From IMG/VR virus record IMGVR_UViG_3300037852_000046, positions 1-64,000 of that record: DNA of 64,000 nt. One strand, 5' to 3'. Of the stretch, positions 12,894 through 61,933 are shown in pieces. The stretch comes from a virus. A model generated the notes under the pieces. It was not told where the DNA came from and made no database searches. It worked only from the letters and a program-made list of their open reading frames with translations. The translations under genes and the position numbers were made by a program. Numbering within the stretch: position 1 is the stretch's first letter; each line of letters starts with the position of its first letter.

Positions 12894-13432
12894 GCCCCGA
12901 GACACTGGCAGCGGCGCTTGGGGTTCCTTCGGCTCGCGCGCAAACGTGGGCCGATCCGCTTTCTGCGGCGATGGCTCTTTATGCTATCGATTCGCTCAAG
13001 AGGCAGGCGGCGTTCCTCGCCCAGGTAGGTCACGAGTCCGGCAGGTTGATCTATGTCCGGGAACTGTGGGGGCCGACGCCCGCACAGGAAGGCTACGAGG
13101 GACGCGCGGATCTCGGCAATACCGAGCCAGGTGACGGGTTCAAGTTCCGTGGCCGTGGCCTGATTCAGGTCACAGGGCGCGCGAATTACGCGACATGCGG
13201 CGCGGCGCTGTGTCTGCCTCTGACCGACTCGCCGGAACTGCTTGAGTCTCCGTCCAATGCTGCGCAGTCGGCGGCGTGGTTCTGGAATTCGCGCGGTCTG
13301 AACGCTTTCGCCGATGTCATGGACTTCGAGACGATCACGCGAAGGGTTAATGGCGGTTTGAACGGGTGGGATGACCGCGTGGCGCTCTGGAAAATGGCGC
13401 TCGCCGCATTTGGAGCAGACAATGGCACTTGA
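12890..13432 (+). CDS. Endolysin, glycoside hydrolase family 19
   Basis: FLAQVGHES, FRGRGLIQVTGRANY, SAAWFW, ITRRVNGG motifs. Confidence 0.92.
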   Translation: MSPETLAAALGVPSARAQTWADPLSAAMALYAIDSLKRQAAFLAQVGHESGRLIYVRELWGPTPAQEGYEGRADLGNTEPGDGFKFRGRGLIQVTGRANYATCGAALCLPLTDSPELLESPSNAAQSAAWFWNSRGLNAFADVMDFETITRRVNGGLNGWDDRVALWKMALAAFGADNGT

Positions 13433-13811
13433 TCCGGTCACGGCAGGAATCGACCTAGCTACTACGATCGTTGGACGCATCTGGCCGGACAAGACGGCGC
13501 AGGAGCAACAGCAACTCGCCGCTACCCTATCCATGATCCAGGGGCAAATGACGATCAACCAGGCGGAAGCGGGCAACGCCAGCACCTTCGTCGCCGGCTG
13601 GCGGCCCTTCATCGGTTGGGTATGCGGTCTCGCATGCGCCTGGAACTGGATGGGCTTGCCTGTCGCCAAGGTAGTTCTCGATTACTTCGGGCACACAATC
13701 TTGATGTCGCCCGCCGATCTGTCGGAGATGATGCCGGTTTTGATGGGCATGCTTGGGCTTGGCGGGCTGCGCACGTTTGAGAAGGTGCAGGGCGTGGCGA
13801 GGATGAAATGA
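13422..13811 (+). CDS. Holin (GTA 3TM / DUF3154-like)
   Basis: FVAGWRPFIGWVC and GMLGLGGLRTFEK motifs. Confidence 0.85.
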   Translation: MALDPVTAGIDLATTIVGRIWPDKTAQEQQQLAATLSMIQGQMTINQAEAGNASTFVAGWRPFIGWVCGLACAWNWMGLPVAKVVLDYFGHTILMSPADLSEMMPVLMGMLGLGGLRTFEKVQGVARMK

Positions 13812-14371
13812 ACCACCTTGTAAAAATCGCTCACGGCATCGATACGGCTCCGGTCCTGCTTGAGATCGCGCGCCAGCCCAAGCTATGGAACCGGCACACG
13901 GTCAGGAAGACGGCACCGGAGACCCCGCACGCCGCGATGGACGATATCTGGCTGCGCTACCGGGATGAGAAGCCGTTTAGGGAATCGGGCGACTACTCGA
14001 CATTCAATGACGAGCATGACGCGATCTTCTACCCGGAATGGTTCGCGCTGCCCAGCGTGCGCCCTATCGTCTACAGTCTCATGGCGCGCGTTCAGGCGGT
14101 ACGCCTGGGCGGTGTGATGATCACCCGGATCCCGCCGGGGGGTCGAATTGACCCGCACGCAGACGACGGCTGGCACGCCACGTATTACAATACGAAATTG
14201 TATGTCGTGCTTCAGTCGAATCCGCAGTGCGTCAATCGCGTGGAAGAGGAGCGCGTCTCGATGGCACCGGGCGATGTCTGGTACTTCGACAACCTGAAAG
14301 AGCATGAAGTCGTGAACGACGGTCCGGACGACCGGATCACGCTGATTGTGTGCCTGAGGTGCGAAAAATGA
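13808..14371 (+). CDS. Asp/Asn beta-hydroxylase family 2OG-Fe(II) oxygenase
   Basis: PGGRIDPHAD (HxD), WYFDNLKEHEVVN (distal H), DRITLIV (2OG-binding R). Confidence 0.85.
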   Translation: MNHLVKIAHGIDTAPVLLEIARQPKLWNRHTVRKTAPETPHAAMDDIWLRYRDEKPFRESGDYSTFNDEHDAIFYPEWFALPSVRPIVYSLMARVQAVRLGGVMITRIPPGGRIDPHADDGWHATYYNTKLYVVLQSNPQCVNRVEEERVSMAPGDVWYFDNLKEHEVVNDGPDDRITLIVCLRCEK

Positions 14372-15654: not shown

Positions 15655-17214
15655 ATGGCCGGACTTGGGGGACTTCCCTACTTCATTCAGTACCAGGGGC
15701 AGTTGCAGGAACAGGCAGCAGCGAAGCAGCAACAGCAGATGCAGCTTATGCAGTTCCAGCAGCAGCAGCAGGACCGCCAGCGGCAACAGGCCGCAATGGC
15801 GGCGGCCGGCAACGCACTCCCTCAACTGGTGCAACCGCCTCCGCAGGCGATGCAGCAGCCCGCGCCGCAACCTCCGGCACCCGGTCAGGCATCACAACCG
15901 ATGCAGCAGGCCGGCGGAGGCGTTCCGTTGCCCCAAGGCCCGGTTCCCGGCCAGGTGTTGCGTCCGCCATTGCTTCCGGGCGGCGCGCAGGGCGCTATGT
16001 CCCCGCAGGGCATTCCGCCTTTCCGTCCGATGCCTAGCGCGCCGCCCCCGCAACAGGCGCAACCGGCAGGGATTCCCGCGCCCCCGCAACAGGCACCGCA
16101 AGCCGCGCCACCCCAGCAAGACCAGATGGAAGGCGGCTTCTCGCTCTCGAACATCATCCAGTCGGGGCAGAAGCAAGGGCTCTCCGGTTCGGATCTGTAC
16201 GACTACGTGCAGACCATGGAACCGTACATGACCGCGCAGCAAAAGGCGAAAGCGGAGCAATTCAAGACACAACTCGAACTGAAGAAGCTCGATGCGGAAA
16301 TTGCTTTGCATACGCAGGCTGCTCAAAACCAGAACCTGTCTTTTCAGGAACGCGAGCGACACGATCGGGCGCTTGAGGATCTGGCATCGCGCCGTATCGG
16401 TATCGCGCAGGGCAATCTGAACATCCGGATTCAGGCAGCAGGAGGCGGAGCGGGGTCCGCCCCTGTGGCCGACCTGACACCGGACACGCAGGGTAATTTG
16501 CCTGCCCCGAAAGCGGTCGGCGGCTATTCGAGTGAAGCAATCAAGGCCTTGGGTGAAGACTTCGCGCAGCGGGGTTCCGCTGCATTCACAGGTATGGGGC
16601 GCGGGAAGAGCGAGGCAGCGGTACGCGCCGAGGCGATCAACTACGGCACTGCGGTAAATGCGCAGAAGGGCGGGAACGTTGCAACCAACCGCATCCAGTA
16701 CGCGGCGGATACGGCCGGCGCACGCTCGAACGCGGTACAAGCCGCCAAGGTGGACGCGGCGGCGAACGCGCTTGTGCAGAAGGGCGGGATTGGCGACCAG
16801 TTGCAGGAGGCGACGGACGCATTGGAGCGAACAGGAATTCCAGTCGCCAATCAGGTGCAGATGGAAGCGCTCCGGCGTACGTTCGATCCGCGCGTCGCGG
16901 CTTACGACGCGGCACAAAATGGCGTGGTATCGGAAGCCGCGCAGATCCTCGGACGCGGCACGCTTACCGTGAACTCGATGGAAGAAGCGCGGCGCGTAGT
17001 AAGCCAGTGGCATACTTCCGAACAGACGCGGGCAGGCCTTGCGCAGCTTAAACGTGAAGCCGCGACCACGGTTAGGGCGTCTTCGGAAGAGGTAGCGAAG
17101 TCCGCGCGCACGCCGAAAGGTCAACCGGGTGTACAGGCAGGCAATGCGCCTGAAACAAAGACGATCGGCAACAAGACATATGTAAAACACGGTTCTGACT
17201 GGTACGAGCAATGA
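15655..17214 (+). CDS. Ejection protein 2 (gp20-like position)
   Basis: Q/P-rich N-half and helical C-half; variable C-terminal tail. Confidence 0.65.
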   Translation: MAGLGGLPYFIQYQGQLQEQAAAKQQQQMQLMQFQQQQQDRQRQQAAMAAAGNALPQLVQPPPQAMQQPAPQPPAPGQASQPMQQAGGGVPLPQGPVPGQVLRPPLLPGGAQGAMSPQGIPPFRPMPSAPPPQQAQPAGIPAPPQQAPQAAPPQQDQMEGGFSLSNIIQSGQKQGLSGSDLYDYVQTMEPYMTAQQKAKAEQFKTQLELKKLDAEIALHTQAAQNQNLSFQERERHDRALEDLASRRIGIAQGNLNIRIQAAGGGAGSAPVADLTPDTQGNLPAPKAVGGYSSEAIKALGEDFAQRGSAAFTGMGRGKSEAAVRAEAINYGTAVNAQKGGNVATNRIQYAADTAGARSNAVQAAKVDAAANALVQKGGIGDQLQEATDALERTGIPVANQVQMEALRRTFDPRVAAYDAAQNGVVSEAAQILGRGTLTVNSMEEARRVVSQWHTSEQTRAGLAQLKREAATTVRASSEEVAKSARTPKGQPGVQAGNAPETKTIGNKTYVKHGSDWYEQ

Positions 17215-18758
17215 AACTGGTAACCGATCCGGCGCTCCTGGCGCAATTGAATGGCGGTGGCGGTGACTCCTCATCCGGAGGGAAAGTCACTGATCCGGCT
17301 TTGCTCGCGCAACTTAACAACCCGGCAACCGGTCTGGAGAAACTTCCGCCGGCCGCTGGCGCTCCGCAGAATCCTGTGTACGTCGCGCCGCCCTCTGAAA
17401 GCATCGGGCAGCGCATCAAAGGCAGTGCGGAGGCTGGAGCGGCGTTGGCAACGGGTGCGCTCGGCGGCGCTGCCGGCCAGTTGTATGGGCTCGGCAAGAC
17501 ACTTACCGGCGGCAAGTACGGCACGCCGCAGGGCGCGGCGGAAGGCGAGGCAGCGGGCGTCAATCTCGCGAACAAGCTTACCTACCAGCCGCGTACGCAA
17601 ACCGGACAGGCGATCACGCAGGGCGTTGGTAAGGCGCTTTCCCCTTTGCAGGCGCTGCCGGCGGACGCCGGTTTACTCGGTCGGATTGGTGAAGTACCGC
17701 GCGGTGTACTGGCGGGCGAAGAGGCAGCCGGCGCGGCGGGGCGCGTGGTCGGCAAAGGCGCAGCAACCGCTGCCGCGAAGGCGTTACCCGCCATAGATGA
17801 GGAAACCCGACAACTCGCGCAGCAGGCTCATCAGATGGGTTTTCGCCTGACTCCGGAACAGGTGGTAGGCGGCAAGTACAGCAAGATTGCTGGCGAAAGC
17901 CTGGCCTCTGTTCCGCTATCGGGCAGCAATGCGGAATTCAATAAAGGCGTATTCCTTCGCAACCTGTCAGAGCAGGCAGGCATAGAAGGCGGAAAGCCGA
18001 CGCGTAAAGCCTTCGGGCAGGCGACGAAAAAAGTGGGCAAGGAGATTGGAGCGCTTAATCAGAAGTACGATGTACCTATCGACCGTTCTGCAACGCAGGC
18101 TTTTAAGTCGAACGCTAACGGTCAGTTGCCGGAAGTGCAGAGCGTCGTCAACTACTACTCTGATCTGATCTCGAAGAGTGCCAAGGGCGGCGTGCTTCCG
18201 GGCAGCACTTTCCGGAAGATCAATACGAAACTTAACACTCAGATCAAGCAGACTTCGAATGGTGATCTGAAGTACGCACTTAGCAATTTGCAGGACGATC
18301 TTCTGGAGCTTCAGCAAAAGCAGATGAGCCCTGAAGATAACGCGCGCCTCAACACTTTGCGACGGCAATATGCGATACAGCGCACGATAGAGCCGCTTGC
18401 AGCGAAGAGTCCTACAGGCGACATCCCGCCGTCGGCGCTACTCGGGGCGCTTACTGCCACAAAGACGGGGAAGTCTTTCGTCGCGCGTAACGCGGCCGGC
18501 GATCTCGGCAATCTGGCGGACATCGGCGCACGCTTTTTGAAAGAGCCGAAGTCTTCGGGAACCGCAGAACGCCGATTGCTGCAAGGTATCCCTCCTGCAC
18601 TTGCCAGTGCGGCCGGCGCGGGTGCGGGCGTCGCCGGAGGGGCTGGCGCTCTTCCTGCCATTTTGGGGGGCGTGGGCGCTACGTACGGCGCGGCTAATCT
18701 GTACAATCGCGCAGGGCCGGCTATAACACGTGCATTGATCGACAGACCGCCTCAATGA
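17211..18758 (+). CDS. Ejection protein 3 (gp16-like position)
   Basis: Ala/Gly-rich helical protein; N-terminal VTDPALLAQLN twice; SSGTAER motif near the C-terminus. Confidence 0.65.
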   Translation: MKLVTDPALLAQLNGGGGDSSSGGKVTDPALLAQLNNPATGLEKLPPAAGAPQNPVYVAPPSESIGQRIKGSAEAGAALATGALGGAAGQLYGLGKTLTGGKYGTPQGAAEGEAAGVNLANKLTYQPRTQTGQAITQGVGKALSPLQALPADAGLLGRIGEVPRGVLAGEEAAGAAGRVVGKGAATAAAKALPAIDEETRQLAQQAHQMGFRLTPEQVVGGKYSKIAGESLASVPLSGSNAEFNKGVFLRNLSEQAGIEGGKPTRKAFGQATKKVGKEIGALNQKYDVPIDRSATQAFKSNANGQLPEVQSVVNYYSDLISKSAKGGVLPGSTFRKINTKLNTQIKQTSNGDLKYALSNLQDDLLELQQKQMSPEDNARLNTLRRQYAIQRTIEPLAAKSPTGDIPPSALLGALTATKTGKSFVARNAAGDLGNLADIGARFLKEPKSSGTAERRLLQGIPPALASAAGAGAGVAGGAGALPAILGGVGATYGAANLYNRAGPAITRALIDRPPQ

Positions 18759-18895
18759 TGTTCGTGTGCGGCGGCAAGGAACATTCCGACGAACATCCCG
18801 AACACAATCGCAGGAACGAAACCTATATGCGTGCAGATGAAGAAGAAGCCGCCGATAAGTGCGCAGCCCCAAAGGAATTCAAGTAAGCCTTTCAT
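18752..18895 (-). CDS. Small hydrophobic membrane protein, 47 aa (MKGLLEFLWGCALIGGFFF...AAAHEHH); superinfection exclusion candidate
   Basis: GGGAGA RBS and own TGCTATAGT extended -10; same slot as 59200-59325. Confidence 0.7.
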   Translation of the reverse strand: MKGLLEFLWGCALIGGFFFICTHIGFVPAIVFGMFVGMFLAAAHEHH

Positions 18896-30034: not shown

Positions 30035-30792
<758 letters not shown>

Positions 30793-30793
<1 letters not shown>

Positions 30794-31077
30794 TGTCGAT
30801 TGGAAAATTCAAGCAGTGGCTGGCGGAATCGACTCCCGCTGAGAAACGGGAGCTTGCGATTAAAGCATCCACGTCCGTCAGTACGCTCTGGCAGATTTCC
30901 TACGAGGTGCGCGGCAACGGTAAACCGTTCAACGCATCTTCGGAACTCGCAGGGCGTATCGAGCGGGCAATCACATCGATCAACAAGCGCCGTCGTCATG
31001 CCCCGCTTCCTGAAGTGCGGAAGGGGGACATCTCGAAGGATTGCGCGAAGTGCCGTTTCTACAAGGAATGCGAATAA
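30793..31077 (+). CDS. Cro-like HTH protein with C-terminal Cys cluster
   Basis: RELAIKASTSVSTLWQI...ASSELAGRIE; CAKCRFYKEC. Confidence 0.6.
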
Positions 31078-31166
31078 TGAAACTCGGTTTAGTTATTGGT
31101 GTATTTGGCGTAATCGTAGGTATCTTTATCTTTTTTCTCTATCTGGTTTTTTTTGCGGACTACTGA
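31077..31166 (+). CDS. 29-aa single-TM peptide (MKLGLVIGVFGVIVGIFIFFLYLVFFADY)
   Basis: TAATG coupling; AT-rich. Confidence 0.55.
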   Translation: MKLGLVIGVFGVIVGIFIFFLYLVFFADY

Positions 31167-31168
31167 AA

Positions 31169-31432
31169 ATGGTACCTCTTGTAGATTTTGCGGTACGTCT
31201 GGTGCAGCTCAAGAATGAAGGGAAGTGGAGCCAGAAGGATCTTGCGGAAAAGATCCGCGTTAACCCGGCCACGTTGTCGAACTATGAACACCGGCATTTC
31301 GTCCCGGATCTGTGGACGCTGCTTGAGATCGCAAAGGTGTTTGACGTGTCGCTCGACTATCTTTGCGGTTTGTCAGAAGTGCGCAAACCGGTGGTGAACA
31401 TGCTGCTCAAGGACTGGAAGGAAAGACAATGA
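31169..31432 (+). CDS. XRE-family HTH regulator
   Basis: SQKDLAEKI.V...TLSNYE....PD...L..IAKVFDVSLDYLCG. Confidence 0.88.
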   Translation: MVPLVDFAVRLVQLKNEGKWSQKDLAEKIRVNPATLSNYEHRHFVPDLWTLLEIAKVFDVSLDYLCGLSEVRKPVVNMLLKDWKERQ

Positions 31433-35579: not shown

Positions 35580-35711
35580 TCAGACAGGACGGATAACGTG
35601 ATTGATGCCAAGTTTAGCCAGACGCAGGGAGGCGCGCTTCGCGGCATTGAAGTTGCGGAACACGTCACGGCATACGGCTTCGTTTGTTGCAGGGTTGACC
35701 AGACGGAACAT
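35580..35711 (-). CDS. Small early protein, 43 aa (MFRLVNPATNEAVC...)
   Basis: GAGGAG RBS directly downstream of the operator-containing promoter. Confidence 0.65.
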   Translation of the reverse strand: MFRLVNPATNEAVCRDVFRNFNAAKRASLRLAKLGINHVIRPV

Positions 35712-52195: not shown

Positions 52196-52390
52196 ATGTC
52201 AGAAGAAAGAACACTCACTGACGGGGATGTAAAGGCGATAGTCGATGAACTGGAAAGACGTGCCACTCAGCGTTTTCAGATTAATATCGGCAGGGGGGTG
52301 TTGGGCCTGGCGTGGAAAGCAGGACTCTACCTCGCAATATGGCTTGCCGCCTACGGCGCTGCCGGGGGCTTCAAGAAATTCTTTCAATAG
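52196..52390 (+). CDS. Single-TM holin/antiholin candidate
   Basis: Homolog of 12476-12670. Confidence 0.6.
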   Translation: MSEERTLTDGDVKAIVDELERRATQRFQINIGRGVLGLAWKAGLYLAIWLAAYGAAGGFKKFFQ

Positions 52391-52400
52391 GAGCAGTATC

Positions 52401-52613
52401 ATGAGCTTTTGGGCAGACATCGAAGCTGAAGCCAATGCTGTATGGGCTAGCGCGGATAGCATTTCCGTCAAACTGGAAAACCTTGTCGGTATTCAAACGC
52501 GCGCTCAACAGGTGACGGCGTTAACGAACCAGTTCACAGCGATCATTGACGACGGCACGAAGGCAACGCCGGAGAAGGTGACGGAACTGTTGACCCTGGT
52601 CGGCAAGCTGTGA
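52401..52613 (+). CDS. Hypothetical protein
   Basis: Homolog of 12681-12893. Confidence 0.7.
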   Translation: MSFWADIEAEANAVWASADSISVKLENLVGIQTRAQQVTALTNQFTAIIDDGTKATPEKVTELLTLVGKL

Positions 52614-53152
52614 GTCCTGAAACACTGGCGGCAGCACTTGGGATCGGATTGCCCCGCGCGCAAACGTGGGCCGATCCGCTTTCTGCGGCGATGGCTCTTT
52701 ATGCGATTGATTCGCCAGCGCGCCAGGCGGCGTTCATTGCTCAGGTAGGCCACGAGTCGGGGCGGTTGATCTACGTGCGCGAACTGTGGGGGCCGACGCC
52801 GACACAGGAAGGCTACGAAGGCCGCGAGGATCTAGGCAATACCGAACCGGGCGATGGGTTCAAGTTCCGGGGTCGGGGGCTGATTCAGGTCACCGGGCGC
52901 GCGAATTACGCGAAGTGCGGCGCGGCGCTCTGTCTTCCGCTTACCGATTCGCCGGAACTGCTTGAGTCTCCGTCCAATGCTGCGCAGTCGGCCGCGTGGT
53001 TCTGGAATTCGCGGAACCTGAACGACCTTGCGGACATCGGGGATTTCAACACGATCACGCGCCGGATCAATGGCGGGTTGAATGGGCTGCAAGACCGGCT
53101 TGCACTGTACGCGCTCGCGAAGAGCGCTTTGGGGAATGGCGATGGCACTTGA
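52610..53152 (+). CDS. GH19 endolysin
   Basis: HES, GRGLIQVTG, SAAWFW. Confidence 0.92.
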   Translation: MSPETLAAALGIGLPRAQTWADPLSAAMALYAIDSPARQAAFIAQVGHESGRLIYVRELWGPTPTQEGYEGREDLGNTEPGDGFKFRGRGLIQVTGRANYAKCGAALCLPLTDSPELLESPSNAAQSAAWFWNSRNLNDLADIGDFNTITRRINGGLNGLQDRLALYALAKSALGNGDGT

Positions 53153-53531
53153 TCCGATCTCGGCGGGAATTGACTTCGCCAACACGATAGTCTCTCGCAT
53201 CTGGCCAGACAAGACAGCGAAAGAACAGCAGCAGTTGTCCGCCGTCCTGGCGATGGTTCAGGGGCAAATGGCGATTAATCAGGCAGAAGCATCGAACGCC
53301 AGCACTTTCGTAGCCGGCTGGCGGCCGTTCATCGGCTGGGTATGTGGTCTCGCGTGCGCATGGAACTGGATGGGGTTACCTGTCGCCAAAGTGGTCCTTG
53401 ATTATCTCGGGCACCCAATCGCGATGTCCCCCGCCGATCTGTCGGAGATGATGCCGGTTCTTATGGGCATGCTCGGCCTCGGCGGTCTGCGCACATTCGA
53501 GAAAGTGCAGGGCGTAGCGAGGATGAAATGA
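53142..53531 (+). CDS. Holin (GTA 3TM-like)
   Basis: GWRPFIGW, GLRTFEK. Confidence 0.85.
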   Translation: MALDPISAGIDFANTIVSRIWPDKTAKEQQQLSAVLAMVQGQMAINQAEASNASTFVAGWRPFIGWVCGLACAWNWMGLPVAKVVLDYLGHPIAMSPADLSEMMPVLMGMLGLGGLRTFEKVQGVARMK

Positions 53532-53773
53532 TCGGGCGCTTCCTTCTGAACGTTCTGCGCTGGCTGGACGAAGGCTTGAACGTCTTCTCAGGCGGCGACG
53601 CCAACGAGACTTTAAGCTCGCGCGCAGGCAAGGAGCAGATCAAGGGCGCAGAGTGGGCATGCGTGCTATGCAAGTCAATAGACTGGGTGACGCACTGGTT
53701 CAAGGTTCCTCCCGGCCACTGCTTGCGCGCGATCAATCCTGACGACGGTAAAAACGCAACTATTCCCGACTGA
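53528..53773 (+). CDS. Lysis-cassette accessory protein (copy B only)
   Basis: LDE..N...GGD..ETLSSRAG..C..C...GHC; coupled on both sides. Confidence 0.7.
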   Translation: MIGRFLLNVLRWLDEGLNVFSGGDANETLSSRAGKEQIKGAEWACVLCKSIDWVTHWFKVPPGHCLRAINPDDGKNATIPD

Positions 53774-54336
53774 TGAAACACTTGATTAAAATCGCCGCTG
53801 GTGTAGACACTGCTCCCGTCCTGCTTGAGATCGCGCGCCAGCCCAAACTGTGGAACCGGCATTCGGTCAGGAAGACTGCGCCTGAGACTCCGCACGCCGC
53901 GATGGACGATATCTGGTTGCGCTACAGGGATGAGAAGCCGTTCAAGGAATCGGGCGACTACTCGACGTTCAACGATGAGCATGACGCGATCTTCTACCCG
54001 GAATGGTTCGCGATACCCAGCGTACGCCCGATTGTCTACAGCCTCATGGCCCGCGTCCAGGCGGTACGCCTCGGCGGCGTGATGATCACCCGGATTCCGC
54101 CGGGGGGTCGAATTGACCCGCACGCGGACGACGGCTGGCACGCCACGTATTACAATACGAAATTGTACGTTGTGCTTCAGTCGAATCCGCAGTGTGTGAA
54201 CCGCGTGGAAGAAGAGCGGGTCTCGATGGCACCAGGTGAAGTCTGGTACTTCGACAATCTGAAAGAGCATGAAGTCGTGAACGACGGGCCGGACGACCGG
54301 ATCACGTTGATTGTGTGTCTGAGGTGCGAGAAATGA
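53773..54336 (+). CDS. Asp/Asn beta-hydroxylase family oxygenase
   Basis: Near-identical to 13808-14371. Confidence 0.85.
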   Translation: MKHLIKIAAGVDTAPVLLEIARQPKLWNRHSVRKTAPETPHAAMDDIWLRYRDEKPFKESGDYSTFNDEHDAIFYPEWFAIPSVRPIVYSLMARVQAVRLGGVMITRIPPGGRIDPHADDGWHATYYNTKLYVVLQSNPQCVNRVEEERVSMAPGEVWYFDNLKEHEVVNDGPDDRITLIVCLRCEK

Positions 54337-54614
54337 TCAGGCATCTATTCGCCGGAGGGGTGTACGCGCGAGAGCAGACACTGGCGGAAGGTCACGAGGT
54401 CGAGAAGCACGAGCACGACTACGATCACCTGAGCTATCTGTGCGCGGGCCGTGCGCTGCTCGACGTGGACGGCGAATTGCAGTATCTGACGGGCCCGTGC
54501 GCGATCCTCATCGCCGCCGGCAAGAAACATCGGATTCAGGCTTTGACGGACATCACCTGGCTTTGCATCCACGCAGAGAGCGTCGCAGATCCGGAAATCA
54601 TCGTAAAGGAGTAG
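54333..54614 (+). CDS. Cupin-fold protein
   Basis: Homolog of 14368-14649. Confidence 0.8.
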   Translation: MIRHLFAGGVYAREQTLAEGHEVEKHEHDYDHLSYLCAGRALLDVDGELQYLTGPCAILIAAGKKHRIQALTDITWLCIHAESVADPEIIVKE

Positions 54615-55669: not shown

Positions 55670-57217
55670 ATGGCCGGACTCGGGGGGCTTCCCTACTTCA
55701 TCCAGTATTCGGGCGAGTTGCAGCAGCAGGCAGCGGCGAAGCAGAAGCAGCAACAGGACATGCTCATCTTCCAGCAACAGCAGCAGGACCGTCAGCGGCA
55801 ACAGGCCGCGCAGGCGGCGGCTGGCAATGCGCTCCCGCAACTCGTGCAACCGCCCCCGCCGATGCAGCAACCCCCGGCACCCGGTCAGGCATCGCAACCG
55901 ATGCAGCAGGCTGGCGGGGGCGTTCCATTGCCTCAAGGTCCGGTTCCCGGCCAAGTGGTGCGTCCGCCGTTGCCCCCCGGCGGCGCGCAGGGCGCTATGC
56001 CTCCGCAAGGCGTTCCGCCGTTCCGCCCGATGCCGACCACGCCCCCTCAAGCGCAGGCCGCGCCGCAGGGGGCTATTCCCGCACCCCCGGCGCAGGCCGG
56101 CGCTTCGCCTGTGAATCCGCAACAGGACCAGATGGAGGGCGGGTTCTCGCTTTCGAATATCATCCAGTCGGGGCAGAAGCAGGGGCTTTCCGGTACGGAT
56201 CTGTACGACTACGTACAGACGATGGAACCTTACATGACCTCGCAGCAGAAGGCGAAAGCGGAGCAGTTCAAGACGCAACTAGAACTGAAGAAACTTGATG
56301 CGGAAATCGCGCTTCATAGCCAGGCGGCACAGAATCAGCAACTCTCGAGGGAAGAGCGGGAGCGGCACGATCAGGCGCTAGAACGTCTCGCGACACAGCG
56401 CATTGGTATTGCGGAGCAGCGAGTCGGGATTGCTGAACGGAAAGGAGGGGCGGGTGCTGTTCCGGCCCCTGAAGCGCAGGGAGACCCTCTCAGCCCGAAA
56501 GGCACGGCGGGGTATTCGAGCGATGCAATCAAGGCACTGGGCGATGATTACGCCGTGCGCGGCCCGACTGCGCTCGCTGGGTTCGGCTACAAGAATCTGC
56601 CTCCGGCGGCACGCGCGGAAATCGTCAACTACGCCGCCGCAAAAAACGCGGCCGGGGGGCAGAACTTCGCCAGTAACAAGATCCAGTACGCGGCGGATAC
56701 TGCCGGCGCGAGGGTCAACGCCCAACAGGCCGCGAAGACGGACGCTGCATCGAACGCCTTGACCAGTGCGGGGGGAATCGGCGATCAGTTCCAGCAGGCT
56801 ATCGATGCGCTCAATCGTACCGGCGTCCCGATTGCCAATCAGGCGCAGATGCAGGCGCTTCGACTGACCAACGATCCGCGCGTCGCGACTTATGATACGG
56901 CGATGAATGGTGTTGTGTCGGAATCCGCGCAGATCCTTGGTCGTGGGCAGATCACCGTGAACTCGATGGAAGAAGCGCGCAAAGTCGTCAACGGCTGGCA
57001 TACTTCCGAACAGGCGAAGGCGGGTCTCGCGCAACTCAAGCGCGAAGCCGCGACCACGGTTAAGGCGTCTTCGGAAGAGGTAGCGAAGTCCGCGCGCACC
57101 CCGAAAGGCCAGCCGGGTGTTCAGGCGGGCGGTCCGGCTGTCGGCACCGTGGAAAGCGGCTATCGATTCAAGGGCGGCGATCCGTCATCCCCTGCCAGTT
57201 GGGAGCGTGTGCAATGA
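55670..57217 (+). CDS. Ejection protein 2
   Basis: Homolog of 15655-17214 with a different C-terminal tail. Confidence 0.65.
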   Translation: MAGLGGLPYFIQYSGELQQQAAAKQKQQQDMLIFQQQQQDRQRQQAAQAAAGNALPQLVQPPPPMQQPPAPGQASQPMQQAGGGVPLPQGPVPGQVVRPPLPPGGAQGAMPPQGVPPFRPMPTTPPQAQAAPQGAIPAPPAQAGASPVNPQQDQMEGGFSLSNIIQSGQKQGLSGTDLYDYVQTMEPYMTSQQKAKAEQFKTQLELKKLDAEIALHSQAAQNQQLSREERERHDQALERLATQRIGIAEQRVGIAERKGGAGAVPAPEAQGDPLSPKGTAGYSSDAIKALGDDYAVRGPTALAGFGYKNLPPAARAEIVNYAAAKNAAGGQNFASNKIQYAADTAGARVNAQQAAKTDAASNALTSAGGIGDQFQQAIDALNRTGVPIANQAQMQALRLTNDPRVATYDTAMNGVVSESAQILGRGQITVNSMEEARKVVNGWHTSEQAKAGLAQLKREAATTVKASSEEVAKSARTPKGQPGVQAGGPAVGTVESGYRFKGGDPSSPASWERVQ

Positions 57218-59172
57218 TGCCTTGGGAGAAGTACGCGGCGCAGGCCGCGCCGGAAGGCGCTCCGGCGATTCCACCTTGGGAGAAGTACGGCGCGCAAAAA
57301 GCCGCCGTTCCCGCTACGCCTGAGCAGCCCCAAAGCATGACAGGATTCGTGGGCGGCAATCTGGCGAAAGGCGCGGCGCAAGTTGCGGGCATGCCGGCGG
57401 AAGTCGGAAAGCAATTGCTGTCGGCCACTGAGGGGCCGGGGCGTGAGCGCTTCGAGAAACTGACGAAAGCGCCAGCGCTTCCGAAGTCAACGCAACCGAT
57501 GGCCGGCAGTCAGCAGCACATCGAGGATCTGCTCAAGCGAAACGGAATCATCACGCAGTCCGCTGAACCACGAGGACGCGGGCAGCAGATCGCGGCGGCC
57601 GGCTTGCAGGCTCTTCCTTCTGCTGTCATACCGGACGGCGGAATGAAGGCGATTCCGCGCATTGCAGCTGCGCTCGGCGGGGGCGTGGGCGGCGAGGTCG
57701 GTCGGCAGATCGGCGGCACGCCGGGGCAACTAGCAGGCGCACTGGTCGGCGGCGGCCTTGGCGGTACGGTCGGCGCGCCGCGCGGCATTCCGAAACCGCC
57801 TAGCGAACCACAGCGCGCGTCGCAGGCGTCAGGCATCCCGCTCACTCTTGGGCAAGAAACGGGCAGCAAGGCGCTCACTTCTATTGAGAACCGTCTACGT
57901 GAACTGTTCCCGTCCAAGGGTACGGCGCACGCCGACGAAGTGGCGCAGGTTACCGCAGGCGTGAAGCGTGTAGACGATCTCGCAAGCCAGATGGGTAGCG
58001 CGACAGCGGATCCGGAAGCTATTGGCAATCAATTACGCCAGTCGTACAAGGATACTGTTGGAAAAATCGACAAAATGCGTTCCTCGCAAGCCGCAACGGA
58101 CTATGGCGACGTACGCAAACTGGCGGCGGACCAGAAAGTTATCGGCTACAAAAACACGCTCGACACGCTCGATCAGATCATCGCGGCGAACAAAAATGTG
58201 CCAGCCGGCGACGCCAAGCGTATCGCAGCACAGGCACAGTCGATACGCGATCTGCTCAAAAAGCAAGGTACGGCCACGGTGGACGACGCGATGAAGACTC
58301 GCAGCGCGTGGGGCAAAGCAGCGCAGCGCACGGGGAACATCTTCTCTGACATCGATCCGAACGCCAATCAGGTATTGGCGAAGCGCCTTTTCGCAGCCGT
58401 GAATAAGGACTTCGATGACGCCAGTACAGCAAGCACTCCAATTGCCCAAGCTTTGAGGAAAGCGAACCAGAATTATGCGAAGGCTTCACAGTCGATCGAT
58501 TTCATCAAGAAATCGGCGCTCGGAAAACTGCTTGGCGAAGATGTGACCGACGCAGCATTCACCGGAAACGTCGCGTCAACCAAAGCACCAGAGGCGATAG
58601 CCAAGCGCTATCTGACGATGAACCCGAGCGAGGCGAAGTCAGTAACCGCAATCCTCCAGCAACATGATCCGCAAACCTTGCAGGACGTGAAGTCTTTCGT
58701 CCTGCGTAACGGACTGGAAGCGGCGAAGAATGACGTACCGGGGGCGGCTCCGATCTCCTTCGCCAAATTCAGGAAAGAGATAGACAAGGTACAGCCCAAG
58801 CTTCAGGAGATGGGGTTCACGAACAAGGAAATCGCGGACATCAAGGACGTTACTGACACGATGGCACGAGCGGGTGACAAGGCCGGCGCAAACCCGTCGG
58901 GTACGTCCGCAGCGCTGCACATGGGTGCAACAGGCGCGGCCGCATTTGCGCATCCTCTGGCAGCGGTTGCCTCAGTCGTAACGCCCTACGTGGCTTCCAA
59001 GGCGCTACTCACGCAACCCGGTCGGGATCTACTGCGCGCGGCGTACAACGCCACGAACGGCAAAGCACAGGCCGCAGCTATTGGAGCGCTTCGCAGTACC
59101 TTCGCACAGCCTAGTGGCCGTGATCAGAATCCGCCGACCACAGGCACACAATTAGCATCACCGCCCCAATGA
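57214..59172 (+). CDS. Ejection protein 3 (highly diverged allele)
   Basis: PWEKY twice at the N-terminus; GIPLTLGQETG and NPSGTS motifs parallel copy A. Confidence 0.65.
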   Translation: MMPWEKYAAQAAPEGAPAIPPWEKYGAQKAAVPATPEQPQSMTGFVGGNLAKGAAQVAGMPAEVGKQLLSATEGPGRERFEKLTKAPALPKSTQPMAGSQQHIEDLLKRNGIITQSAEPRGRGQQIAAAGLQALPSAVIPDGGMKAIPRIAAALGGGVGGEVGRQIGGTPGQLAGALVGGGLGGTVGAPRGIPKPPSEPQRASQASGIPLTLGQETGSKALTSIENRLRELFPSKGTAHADEVAQVTAGVKRVDDLASQMGSATADPEAIGNQLRQSYKDTVGKIDKMRSSQAATDYGDVRKLAADQKVIGYKNTLDTLDQIIAANKNVPAGDAKRIAAQAQSIRDLLKKQGTATVDDAMKTRSAWGKAAQRTGNIFSDIDPNANQVLAKRLFAAVNKDFDDASTASTPIAQALRKANQNYAKASQSIDFIKKSALGKLLGEDVTDAAFTGNVASTKAPEAIAKRYLTMNPSEAKSVTAILQQHDPQTLQDVKSFVLRNGLEAAKNDVPGAAPISFAKFRKEIDKVQPKLQEMGFTNKEIADIKDVTDTMARAGDKAGANPSGTSAALHMGATGAAAFAHPLAAVASVVTPYVASKALLTQPGRDLLRAAYNATNGKAQAAAIGALRSTFAQPSGRDQNPPTTGTQLASPPQ

Positions 59173-59199
59173 CATCGTAGAACATGTCAGGGGTTAGCA

Positions 59200-59325
59200 T
59201 CATTTCTGGTAGTTTTCCCAAGGGCCATGCACGACGGGCGGGTCGCTGCGTACAGGACTCTTAAGAATCAGGAAGTCGAAGAGCAGAACTTGCGATACGA
59301 TCAAGATTGCGGCGAATAGTTTCAT
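59200..59325 (-). CDS. 41-aa membrane-anchored peptide ending GPWENYQK; superinfection exclusion candidate
   Basis: GGGAGA RBS; TTGCTT-17 bp-TATAGT promoter; N-terminal hydrophobic helix. Confidence 0.7.
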   Translation of the reverse strand: MKLFAAILIVSQVLLFDFLILKSPVRSDPPVVHGPWENYQK

Positions 59326-59350
59326 GGTGATCTCCCAGGTTGTTACGACC

Positions 59351-59379
59351 ACTATAGCAAATGCTAAATAGGAAAGCAA
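59351..59379 (-). promoter_or_regulatory. Sigma70 promoter with operator
   Basis: TTGCTT-17 bp-TATAGT; TATAGCA-AA-TGCTAAA. Confidence 0.7.
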
Positions 59380-59380
59380 G

Positions 59381-60727
59381 GTGAAGATACTGGTTATTGA
59401 CGTTGCTTCTAACGCCTTGGATCTTTGCCTGCGGTGGCAAGCGGAAGGCAACGAGGTTAAATGGTATGACAAACCCCGAGACGACGGTTCACCTCGTCGC
59501 GCCGGAGAGGGCTTTGTCGAAAAGATCAGGGACTTTAACGACCTCCGTAAAAAATGGATCGGATGGGCCGATCTCATTTACACACCAGACAACACGTGCT
59601 ACCTCGATCTGCTCGAACCGTATCGGCGGATCGGATACCCCATCCACGGGTGCAACCTCGACACTGTGGAGTGGGAACTTGACCGTGAAATCGGTCAGAA
59701 AGTCATGCAGGAGTGCGGATTAAAAACCATTCCGGGCAAGACGTTTCACGATTACGATACGGCCGCAGCATACGTCAAAAAACAGGGCGTAGCGATGGTT
59801 TCCAAGCCTTCAGGCGACGGTGAGCGCGCCATGTCATACGTGTCGAAAAATGCTGCCGATCTGGTGTACATGCTTCAGCGGTGGAGCAAAGTAGATAAGT
59901 ACCGTAAAGCCGCTAAAGAGATGGGGTTCATCCTTCAAGAGAAGGTCAATGGTATCGCGGAGATGGCCGTTGGCGGGTGGTTCATACCGGGCGTAGGTTG
60001 GTCGAAGGCTGGATGGGTGGAAAACTTCGAACATAAATCCCTCTTCGCCGGGGATCTTGGTGTTTCGACCGGGGAGATGGGCACTATCGTACGCGTAGTG
60101 AAAAAATCAAAACTCGCGGACATGATGCTCAAGCCTGTTACTGAGCATCTGCACAAGATAGGGTATGTCGGCTATCTGGACGTAGCTACGATTATCGGGG
60201 AAGACGGCACGCCCTGGCCTCTGGAATTTACCTGCCGGGACGGCTGGCCTATCCGCCACAATCTGACCTCGTTAATTGAGGGTAGCCAGTCGCAGTGGAT
60301 GCTAGACGCTATAAACGGCAAAGATACTCTCAAGATCAAGACGGATGTAGTAAGCGCCAGTGTAGTTATGGCATTGCCTGACTTTCCCTATTCTCATGTT
60401 ACGAATCGCGAACTGTGCGACATTCCGATTTACGGGGCAGAAGACACCGGCCACGTGCATTTTTCCGAGGTAATGCTGGGCGCGGCACCGCGCGAGGTAA
60501 ACGGTAAGGTGGTTGATCTTCCTGGCCCAGTGACGGCAGGTGATTACACCCTTGTTGCAACAGGGCAGGGCGAAACAGTATCCGGCGCGCGCCGAAGCGT
60601 GTACAGTGCGCTGAAGAAAATCTCAGTGCCGAACAGCCCGTTCTATCGAATCGACATCGGCGTAAAATTGAGAAAGCAACTCCCCGAATTGCAACGGTTA
60701 GGCTTCGCTACCGGAATGGAATTTTGA
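59381..60727 (+). CDS. PurD-like ATP-grasp ligase
   Basis: Homolog of 18938-20281. Confidence 0.8.
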   Translation: MKILVIDVASNALDLCLRWQAEGNEVKWYDKPRDDGSPRRAGEGFVEKIRDFNDLRKKWIGWADLIYTPDNTCYLDLLEPYRRIGYPIHGCNLDTVEWELDREIGQKVMQECGLKTIPGKTFHDYDTAAAYVKKQGVAMVSKPSGDGERAMSYVSKNAADLVYMLQRWSKVDKYRKAAKEMGFILQEKVNGIAEMAVGGWFIPGVGWSKAGWVENFEHKSLFAGDLGVSTGEMGTIVRVVKKSKLADMMLKPVTEHLHKIGYVGYLDVATIIGEDGTPWPLEFTCRDGWPIRHNLTSLIEGSQSQWMLDAINGKDTLKIKTDVVSASVVMALPDFPYSHVTNRELCDIPIYGAEDTGHVHFSEVMLGAAPREVNGKVVDLPGPVTAGDYTLVATGQGETVSGARRSVYSALKKISVPNSPFYRIDIGVKLRKQLPELQRLGFATGMEF

Positions 60728-61245
60728 TGAAAACCTGTACTAAGTGCGGACTTACTAAAGACTTCTCCTGCTTTCGCCGCCGTGGCGAAATCGGGTACAA
60801 GCCTGACTGTAAAGACTGCGCTCGACTCTACAATCTCGCGAACCGTGAAAAGCAACTAGCGCAGATGAAAGTCTATCGCGAAGCAAACAAAGAGAAGATT
60901 CTTCCGTTCAAACAGGCGTGGAAAGAACGGAACCGCGAACAGGTCAGAGAAGCGAACAGGACGTACCAGAAAGCCGCGAAAAGTCTGATAAACGCCCGCA
61001 CAGCTAAGCGCAGGGCGTTGAAGAAAAATGCAACGCCAGCATGGGCCGACGCGGGGAAGATGAAGGAATTCTATTTTGCGGCTGATTTCCTCGGCATGGT
61101 GACCGGCGAGTGGTACCACGTCGATCACATCGTGCCTTTGCAAAGCAAACTTGTTCGCGGTTTGCACTGCGAGGAAAATTTTCAGGTTCTCCCCGGCATT
61201 GAGAACTGGAAGAAAGGCAACACCCAATGGCCGGATATGCCTTAG
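60727..61245 (+). CDS. HNH homing endonuclease (copy B only)
   Basis: CTKC..CKDC; ATPAWAD...YHVDHIVPL...GLH. Confidence 0.88.
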   Translation: MKTCTKCGLTKDFSCFRRRGEIGYKPDCKDCARLYNLANREKQLAQMKVYREANKEKILPFKQAWKERNREQVREANRTYQKAAKSLINARTAKRRALKKNATPAWADAGKMKEFYFAADFLGMVTGEWYHVDHIVPLQSKLVRGLHCEENFQVLPGIENWKKGNTQWPDMP

Positions 61246-61253
61246 GAGTCATC

Positions 61254-61403
61254 ATGCCACTCGACAAGAGTAAATCGAAATCGGCTATCGGGAAGAACAT
61301 CAAGACCGAGATGAAACACGGCAAGCCTCAGAAGCAGGCTGTGGCGATTGCGCTCAACACTGCGCGTAAGGCCGGCGCGCACATTCCGAAGAGGAAGAAG
61401 TGA
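61254..61403 (+). CDS. Small basic protein
   Basis: Homolog of 20290-20439. Confidence 0.8.
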   Translation: MPLDKSKSKSAIGKNIKTEMKHGKPQKQAVAIALNTARKAGAHIPKRKK

Positions 61404-61933
61404 CTAGCCGCGCGCGTAAAAACGGTCTGATCAGCGAGCAGTCAATCAAGGCCGCGCTTGGCGAAGCTAAGGGAGACCTCTTCCTCGCTTCGTGCGCCCT
61501 TGACTGCACGGCTCGTGAACTCGACGGTTATATCCGTCGCTCCGTCGAGTTGCAACACTTCATAGCTGCTATTGAACAGGTCAGGATCAACCCGGCCTAC
61601 TCGCGTTTGAGCGTCGAGCAGTTTGAGAATCAGCTGGCCGATCAGACTCGCGCGCTCCGGATAGAAGGGCTCAACGAAATCCATAAGCTCGCGACGATGG
61701 AATTCGGTGATAGTGCCGCCCTTGCGAAGGTCAAACTGGATGCGGCGCTCGCCCTTCGCGGTGGAGTGCAGGGTAGTGTCTCCAACAGTGAGACAGAGTC
61801 GGCGCTTGCCGAATTGAACCACCTGTATCATCAAAATGCCCCTCGTATCAAAGAGATTCGCCAGACTGTGATAACGCTTCAGGATGATCGGGAAGCGATT
61901 CCACAAGTAATCGAACAGAAGCCATATCCATGA
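61400..61933 (+). CDS. HTH protein, candidate TerS
   Basis: Homolog of 20436-20969. Confidence 0.5.
   Translation: MTSRARKNGLISEQSIKAALGEAKGDLFLASCALDCTARELDGYIRRSVELQHFIAAIEQVRINPAYSRLSVEQFENQLADQTRALRIEGLNEIHKLATMEFGDSAALAKVKLDAALALRGGVQGSVSNSETESALAELNHLYHQNAPRIKEIRQTVITLQDDREAIPQVIEQKPYP

Follow-up and report, generated by a model that had tools for sequence, protein, structure and literature searches.

An antisense membrane micro-protein beside putative ejection genes of a Burkholderia or Paraburkholderia phage: a candidate for exclusion by motif mimicry

Introduction

What might a small membrane peptide do when it is encoded on the strand opposite to a phage virion operon and ends in a motif that also opens the large protein beside it? 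The question is raised by a locus in the IMG/VR virus record IMGVR_UViG_3300037852_000046, of which positions 1 to 64,000 on one strand (the window, 64,000 nucleotides) were analysed. Here a 41-residue antisense open reading frame, peptide 1, lies between E3, the last of three consecutive putative ejection-protein genes (E1–E3) at the end of the virion operon, and a PurD-like ATP-grasp gene. Judged by sequence, peptide 1 is a real accessory gene and founds a new conserved micro-protein family. The best reading of its function, which we advance tentatively, is the exclusion of related phages by mimicry of E3 docking motifs.

The source record is a contig of 79,073 bp with a 71-bp terminal repeat, and the window is a part of it. 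The contig consists of two related phage genomes of ~39.5 kb each, arranged head to tail and referred to as copies A and B. Peptide 1 belongs to copy B, whose E1, E2, and E3 proteins have 347, 515, and 652 residues. The features on which the argument turns are the following.

57131 to 57214, plus strand: C-terminal tail of E2, its last 28 codons (GYRFKGGDP...SWERVQ), an allelic module
57214 to 59172, plus strand: E3, a 652-residue putative ejection protein in the position of P22 gp16, from the list of open reading frames
57220–57234 and 57274–57288, plus strand: PWEKY, the duplicated N-terminal motif of E3 (MMPWEKYAAQ, then PPWEKYGAQK)
59379–59374, minus strand: −35 element TTGCTT, by inspection, with a 17-nucleotide spacer to the extended −10
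59359–59351, minus strand: extended −10 element TGcTATAGT, by inspection
59336–59331, minus strand: Shine-Dalgarno sequence GGGAGA, 5 nucleotides before the ATG of peptide 1
59325 to 59203, stop at 59202–59200, minus strand: peptide 1 (variant P0001), 41 residues, 27 nucleotides beyond the E3 stop (59172)
59319 to 59263, minus strand: transmembrane helix of peptide 1, residues 3–21, a hydrophobic 19-mer with a mean Kyte-Doolittle value of 2.57
59226 to 59203, minus strand: tail motif GPWENYQK, the C-terminal end of peptide 1
59111 to 59203, minus strand: peptide 2 (P0006), 30 residues plus stop, with one hydrophobic helix and an acidic/His tail
59381 to 60727, plus strand: PurD-like ATP-grasp gene (Pfam GARS_A/GARS_C), the right boundary of the slot

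Results

Peptide 1 and its family

The first-pass annotation of the window had reported that E3 of copy B opens with a duplicated motif and that an antisense frame of 41 codons, with a sigma-70 promoter and a ribosome-binding site of its own, encodes a hydrophobic helix and ends in GPWENYQK (59203–59226); all of these elements were recovered as listed above. Beyond the helix, peptide 1 continues with KSPVRSDPPVV and then HGPWENYQK, giving a tail of 20 residues. The promoter, TTGCTT-17-TGcTATAGT followed by GGGAGA, is apparent by inspection, and a simple sigma-70 scan detected no promoter upstream of peptide 1. Among relatives, TGnTATA(G/A)T together with a Shine-Dalgarno sequence is kept in 14 of 14 distinct sequences upstream of the slot, by which we mean the interval between E3 and the ATP-grasp gene.

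The same promoter type recurs elsewhere in the phage. The element gcaWWtgCTATAGT is found in seven copies in the 79-kb contig (window positions ~18921, 24697, 30001, 35741, and 59351; contig positions ~69988 and 76725), always 20–30 nucleotides upstream of a Shine-Dalgarno sequence and start codon, and the genes that follow it are the slot peptides, the helicase operon, a gene at 30035, and small genes near 35700. One copy, before the helicase operon, is a TTGACA-17-TATAGT promoter with a perfect −35 element, which puts the promoter of peptide 1 in one class with promoters of the phage's replication genes. The promoter core lies in a palindrome, CTATAGCAwwTGCTATAG, which may be a repressor operator, perhaps for the helix-turn-helix protein at 30800–31432. 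A T7-type promoter was considered for CACTATAG and rejected; the sequence reads as a sigma-70 extended −10 element on the opposite strand at all seven sites, and no phage RNA polymerase was seen.

Two independent protein searches gave seven variants of peptide 1 (P0001–P0005, P0007, and P0009). Relative to the homolog at locus L004, insertions and deletions are of 3, 6, and 15 nucleotides only, all multiples of three. HGPWENY is invariant in five of the seven variants, the helices of which are only 37–76% identical; P0007 reads HGPWEMY, and P0009 is without the GPWE motif. On this pattern of conservation it is the tail, not the helix, that appears to be the selected part of the peptide. The frames called for two variants extend upstream through the conserved 5′ leader, and these two can accordingly be assigned to the same slot.

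The peptide belongs to no Pfam, PHROG, or PADLOC family, and HGPWENY has no match in 401 Burkholderiaceae species genomes. Further HGPWENY-type peptides in IMG/VR are of the L004 type only. In a metagenome pattern scan for HGPWENY, the peptide was absent from 80 loci among the matches listed, and a scan for the P0009 motif gave one match, which is unrelated.

Tail modules and their counterparts in E3

The tail of the family is made up of two modules. WQDAP and GPWE[NM]Y occur together in four of the seven variants, GPWENY occurs alone in two, and WQDAP alone in one; the window variant is of the GPWENY-only kind, its first module having decayed to RSDPPVV. The E3 N-termini of relatives fall into five discrete types.

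Type a: PWEKY twice
Type b: VTDPALLAQLN twice
Type c: GWQDAPL.. and then AAWE[DS]APV.
Type d: PKFTFTSPEGK...
Type e: a single other type

In 19 aligned a-type N-termini, P-W-x-[KR]-Y is near-invariant, with K or R at position 4 throughout (19 of 19 N-termini, 38 motif copies). WQDAP is the duplicated N-terminal motif of c-type E3, and L004, the sole WQDAP locus with genomic context, also has this motif in the E3 of the locus: the E3 N-terminus of the L004 group reads GWQDAPLI and AAWEDAPVV, and the peptide has AWQDAPIV and then HGPWENY.

How far such a likeness could arise by chance was assessed for the window and for the relatives. Among all 153,871 residues of the six-frame translation, PWE.Y has just three occurrences, two of them in E3 of copy B and one in peptide 1. 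In a Smith-Waterman comparison of the tail with all frames, chance matches score up to 40 versus 30 for E3, and comparison of shuffled peptide with the first 40 residues of E3 gives p = 0.013–0.034; the window alone is thus suggestive only, and the significance comes from the relatives. Compared with residues 1–40 of the E3 at its own locus, the L004 peptide scores 41 (p = 2.5e-4), which is the top match in the 13.7-kb six-frame translation and lies above every chance match in 122 k residues of unrelated frames. The WQDAP-bearing variants match c-type E3 with p ≤ 6e-4, and all GPWE-bearing variants match a-type E3 with p = 0.002–0.016. No signal was obtained with the b, d, and e types, and 12 other slot proteins compared with the five E3 types gave nothing comparable (minimum p 0.0115).

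The codons of the matching motifs differ at synonymous sites, indicating that the likeness is one at the protein level and not a recent DNA copy. For a tail of two modules, each of which matches a different E3 allele class, an accidental origin does not appear plausible.

These comparisons bear on two proposals of the first-pass annotation. The proposal that the tail mimics the E3 motif gained a second case, WQDAP in the L004 group, but GPWENY is also kept beside the WQDAP-type E3, and position 4 differs. The expectation that PWExY peptides would co-occur with PWEKY alleles failed: of the PWEKY-type loci that were seen, the window is alone in having a peptide of this kind, and the rest have Q/Y-rich signal-peptide proteins, two-helix peptides, or no slot. 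For the interpretation as a whole, this leaves a real gene, a sieA-like position, and a second motif standing, but not the allele co-occurrence as it was framed.

Putative ejection proteins E1–E3

E1–E3 match no known family, and a PDB sequence search with E2 and E3 was empty. E3 has no Pfam, PHROG, or PDB match, with none in Pfam at E ≤ 10, and hhalign of the E3 profile with P22 gp16 gives a probability of 0.4%, i.e., no similarity. In language-model features, E3 is nearest to the cluster carrying Phage_P22_gp16 (0.96; 187 of 256 features), and E2 is nearest to the cluster of Inj_translocase, the P22 gp20 family (0.91; 138 shared features). Glycine-zipper-like hydrophobic stretches are plentiful in E3.

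The type of the E2 tail matches the type of the E3 N-terminus in 53 of 53 distinct loci. Free recombination joins the E2-tail/E3-head module to different E2 bodies and to either type of E3 body (57131–57300 and 17143–17330; loci L001–L092), and the nucleotide similarity of copies A and B, which are 70–91% identical where alignable, stops at 17142/57130. As the two parts of the module are a few nucleotides apart, their co-variation is explicable by linkage alone. E2 proteins with the a-type module are most conserved in their tail, which carries the invariant columns of sequences that are otherwise 29–35% identical. Its C-terminus is SWERVQ or NWEK, and this WE[KR] motif hints that E2 and E3 are both ligands of a third component, possibly of the host; the a-type E2 tail may thus be another motif carrier rather than a receptor. 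Complex prediction with the C-terminal 120 residues of E2 and the peptide gave 0.06 and 0.08, relative to a mark of 0.32, and is evidence neither way.

The slot as a moron

In many isolate prophages, the E3 stop overlaps the start of the ATP-grasp gene (gap −4) and there is no slot. In filled slots, the conserved promoter is accompanied by either one or two small genes in antisense, and the GC content of the slot is 0.48–0.50, versus 0.60 in E3 and 0.576 genome-wide. With regard to the marks of a moron, the slot has a promoter of its own, is missing in close relatives, where its two neighbours adjoin directly, and deviates in base composition; a simple and weak scan for a terminator of its own found none on the minus strand beyond peptide 2. 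We class the slot as a moron, an accessory insertion of low GC content that is placed and oriented like P22 sieA.

The second gene of the slot, peptide 2, has an ATG that overlaps the stop of peptide 1 (ATGA), and its 3′ two-thirds are antisense to the end of E3. Homologs of peptide 2, with the pattern (M)xTPDMxxNxIEAVML...DHH, are present in all loci with the long (B-type) E3 body, whatever their peptide 1. At L016 and L049, peptide 2 is the sole slot gene.

In copy A, the slot is occupied by an unrelated 47-residue hydrophobic peptide (18752 to 18895, minus strand; 18895..18755 for the 47 residues) with identical promoter, Shine-Dalgarno sequence, and ATG position; as was noted at first pass, it is without the VTDPALL motif. 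In other relatives, the cargo is always a small exported or membrane protein, be it a Q/Y-rich protein with a signal peptide, a Cys-rich protein, or a peptide of one or two helices. Among these are families of Q-, Y-, and N-rich proteins of 75–120 residues with signal peptides, in some of which cysteines are paired, and 50–75-residue two-helix peptides ending in ...GRL[TS]AE (loci L001, L010, L041, L043, L047, L050, L057, L071, and L086).

RNA data are available from two soil metatranscriptome runs, in which contigs 100% identical to parts of copy B E2, E3, and the HNH gene (56000–61500) show that the phage, or phage DNA, is present in the soil RNA libraries. The slot itself has no contig in these runs, which, at a depth of ~2–4 and with no strand information, is uninformative on expression.

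Two other functions were considered for the slot peptide and rejected. A holin or lysis role is unlikely because the phage has a separate, probable lysis cassette.

52196–53531: probable lysis cassette, with a 64-residue holin-like protein with a C-terminal helix, a GH19-type lysozyme (52610–53152), and an overlapping membrane protein

A graspetide, one of the ribosomally synthesized and post-translationally modified peptides, was suggested by the neighbouring ATP-grasp gene and by a microviridin-like look (PSDWEEY). The ATP-grasp enzyme is PurD-like and is present in many relatives without the slot peptide, and the slot cargo is otherwise unrelated.

The phage and its contig

Each copy encodes replication proteins (DNA polymerase, helicase, a gp2.5-like single-stranded DNA-binding protein, exonuclease, and primase) and structural and lysis proteins (terminase, portal, capsid, tail fibre, and GH19 lysozyme), the latter followed by the three large proteins without family match. 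Relatives occur as prophages in Burkholderia and Paraburkholderia chromosomes, and IMG/VR contains many of them. Among cultured phages, E3 has no tblastn match in 50,697 phage records, a search of phage records with the region matched only 60–77 nucleotides, and the capsid protein is at most 28% identical to any record. The phage is a temperate one with a P22-like organisation, and its host is Burkholderia or Paraburkholderia.

In the DNA run that is the probable source, word depth is 42–46 for B-type contigs and 9.8 for an A-type contig, which means that the two phages are not equimolar. The A/B tandem may therefore be an assembly chimera rather than one molecule.

The virion operon also encodes an Asp/Asn beta-hydroxylase-like cupin and a second cupin (53773–54614) in addition to the PurD-like ATP-grasp enzyme (59381–60727). 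These genes sit within the virion/ejection operon without metabolic context, and their products may be protein-modifying enzymes.

Discussion

Comparison with known systems

In P22, gene 16 ends at 13313, sieA lies at 13336–13830 on the minus strand, and its promoter lies at 13861–13891. SieA targets the gp20/gp16 conduit and blocks DNA entry, and escape mutations map to gp16 and gp20; the protein has 162–164 residues, three predicted helices, and a cytoplasmic FxRYPxEAxxFNK motif (PMC10883804). The sieA-like placement proposed at first pass is borne out by the present locus: peptide 1, too, is a membrane protein gene that is antisense, has its own promoter, and directly follows the third ejection-type gene (PMC10883804). 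The three upstream proteins also correspond in size, with 347, 515, and 652 residues for E1, E2, and E3 compared with gp7, gp20 (471 residues), and gp16 (609 residues) from the P22 genes 7-20-16; the pattern of P22-type ejection genes is three in a row for about 230–350, 470–520, and 610–650 residues. In contrast to the SieA family, with about 160–200 residues and three or four helices, peptide 1 has 41 residues and one helix; FxRYPxEAxxFNK is absent from P0001–P0005, P0007, and P0009, no sequence relation was detected, and SieA is not reported to copy an ejection-protein motif. Neither the P22 SieA paper (PMC10883804) nor a 2024 review describes an exclusion system that works by short-linear-motif mimicry.

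The product of HK97 gene 15 is a second point of reference. This small YebO-like inner-membrane protein is a moron product encoded inside the virion operon, and it blocks genome entry in a manner that depends on tail features of the incoming phage, not on surface receptors (PMC3594210). Like peptide 1, gp15 is a small inner-membrane protein of a moron, but it belongs to another family, and peptide 1 shows no YebO-like similarity in Pfam, PHROG, or PADLOC. Furthermore, gp15 is co-oriented with the tail operon and targets the siphovirus tail/tape-measure pathway, and no mimicry has been described for it.

Pore-forming colicins offer a further parallel. Their immunity genes encode small membrane proteins and lie antisense, directly downstream of a gene for a large membrane-active protein, with their own promoter. 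The disordered N-terminal translocation domains of colicins dock to envelope partners through short Tol/Ton-box motifs, some of which imitate a host protein. The immunity proteins differ in having 3–4 helices and in binding the pore domain within the membrane, not the N-terminal motif, and nothing points to pore formation by E3 or to binding of Tol or Ton by its motifs.

A model for peptide 1 and its alternatives

Starting from the observed gene signals, family conservation, modular motif match, accessory slot, and sieA-like position, we infer a topology, a binding interaction, a target, and an exclusion function as follows. The gene of peptide 1, which leads an antisense unit of two genes lying between E3 and the ATP-grasp gene, would encode a single-pass inner-membrane micro-protein with a short C-terminal tail that probably faces the periplasm; flank charges favour a tail-out orientation in four of five variants. 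This tail would present one or two short tryptophan motifs, of the WQDAP type and the GPWE[NM]Y type, that open, as tandem pairs, different E3 alleles. Once tethered, it would be a competitor, for a docking partner, of the E3 N-terminus that a superinfecting phage brings in, the candidates being the co-varying E2 C-terminal tail and a host envelope factor, such that the envelope-spanning DNA conduit would fail to assemble and related incoming phages would be excluded. In its extended form, which is doubtful but worth stating, the family would display periplasmic copies of the docking motifs of different ejection alleles, whether of the WQDAP type, the PWEKY type, or both, acting as mono- or bivalent decoys and bringing about allele-specific exclusion by short-linear-motif mimicry.

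Several observations count against exclusion by motif mimicry. The match in the window is just five residues long (p about 0.01–0.03), and the p-values of the variants are not independent, as the variants are homologs. Position 4 is always K or R in E3 and is N or M in every peptide, and phages of the PWEKY type are mostly without such a peptide. Genomic context is at hand for two of the seven variants, the window and L004, and the tracking of the cognate allele consequently has n = 2. The charges of the window variant (+1 on both flanks) leave its topology ambiguous, and expression from the prophage is not assured, since the palindrome at the promoter may be an operator. Lastly, the assignment of E3 to the ejection-protein class is putative, its two grounds being gene order and the language-model lead.

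Much of this would suit a generic envelope moron, by which peptide 1 would be a real small membrane protein, serving exclusion or host modification, that acts through its helix or an unrelated interaction, the tail likeness being functionless and either a relic of old sequence exchange or a coincidence among short motifs rich in Trp, Pro, and acidic residues. We consider this a serious though doubtful alternative. It accommodates the many unrelated small exported or membrane proteins that fill the slot without likeness to E3, the short, near-chance match in the window, the consistent difference at position 4, and the scarcity of the peptide among PWEKY phages. It does not account for an invariant part that is the tail and not the helix, or for two tail modules that are found separately and together and each match another E3 allele class, and the synonymous differences speak against a recent relic. 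Less probable than any other account, to the point that we give it very little weight, is that peptide 1 is not a gene at all and is a chance open frame in a regulatory spacer conserved for the plus-strand ATP-grasp gene. A length of just 41 codons, the lack of a database family match, and the missing RNA contig over the frame (uninformative at the depth of ~2–4 in the two soil runs) are what such a frame would present, but seven homologs share the tail with in-frame indels, the Shine-Dalgarno sequence and ATG keep a fixed distance from a conserved promoter, and the spacer is missing where there is no cargo.

The remaining accounts accept a functional peptide and differ in its partner. Peptides 1 and 2 might serve their own phage, protecting the producer from its membrane-active E3 or tethering or timing E2/E3 in assembly. 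This is consistent with the joint swapping of E3 and the two peptides between copies A and B, with peptide 2 types that follow the E3 body types, and with the resemblance of an antisense, self-promoted gene after a large hydrophobic protein to colicin operons. However, many relatives with the same E3 classes have no slot, which makes it dispensable for the cycle of the phage itself, the GPWENY module kept in the L004 group has no counterpart in that group's own E3, and adjacency alone explains the co-swapping; we judge such a role unlikely. Slightly more unlikely still is masking of a host factor, whereby the E3 tryptophan motifs would bind a periplasmic or inner-membrane protein of the host that the conduit requires to form, and peptide 1 would occupy that protein instead of the incoming E2. 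The a-type E2 tail ending in WE[KR], which makes E2 and E3 both possible motif carriers, agrees with this, as do the combination in one peptide of two motif types whose E2 tails are unrelated and the short-motif mimicry of envelope proteins by colicin translocation domains. No candidate host protein has been identified, though, and a phage-phage contact would account at least equally well for the matching types of E2 tail and E3 N-terminus at 53 of 53 loci.

Implications

The molecular mode by which small prophage membrane proteins such as SieA and HK97 gp15 block DNA entry is still unexplained, and exclusion by motif mimicry is a concrete, testable proposal for it: a 20-residue tail with two recognisable motifs, each of which has a counterpart in a defined ejection-protein allele. 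If this proposal is true, phages would be competing with one another through mimicry of short motifs, the docking points of the envelope conduit would be the N-terminal motifs of E3, and the variability of the E2-tail/E3-head module would be explained as an arms race with decoys. Even without mimicry, the locus provides a new micro-protein family and a well-defined moron slot in an uncharacterised group of Burkholderia/Paraburkholderia prophages.

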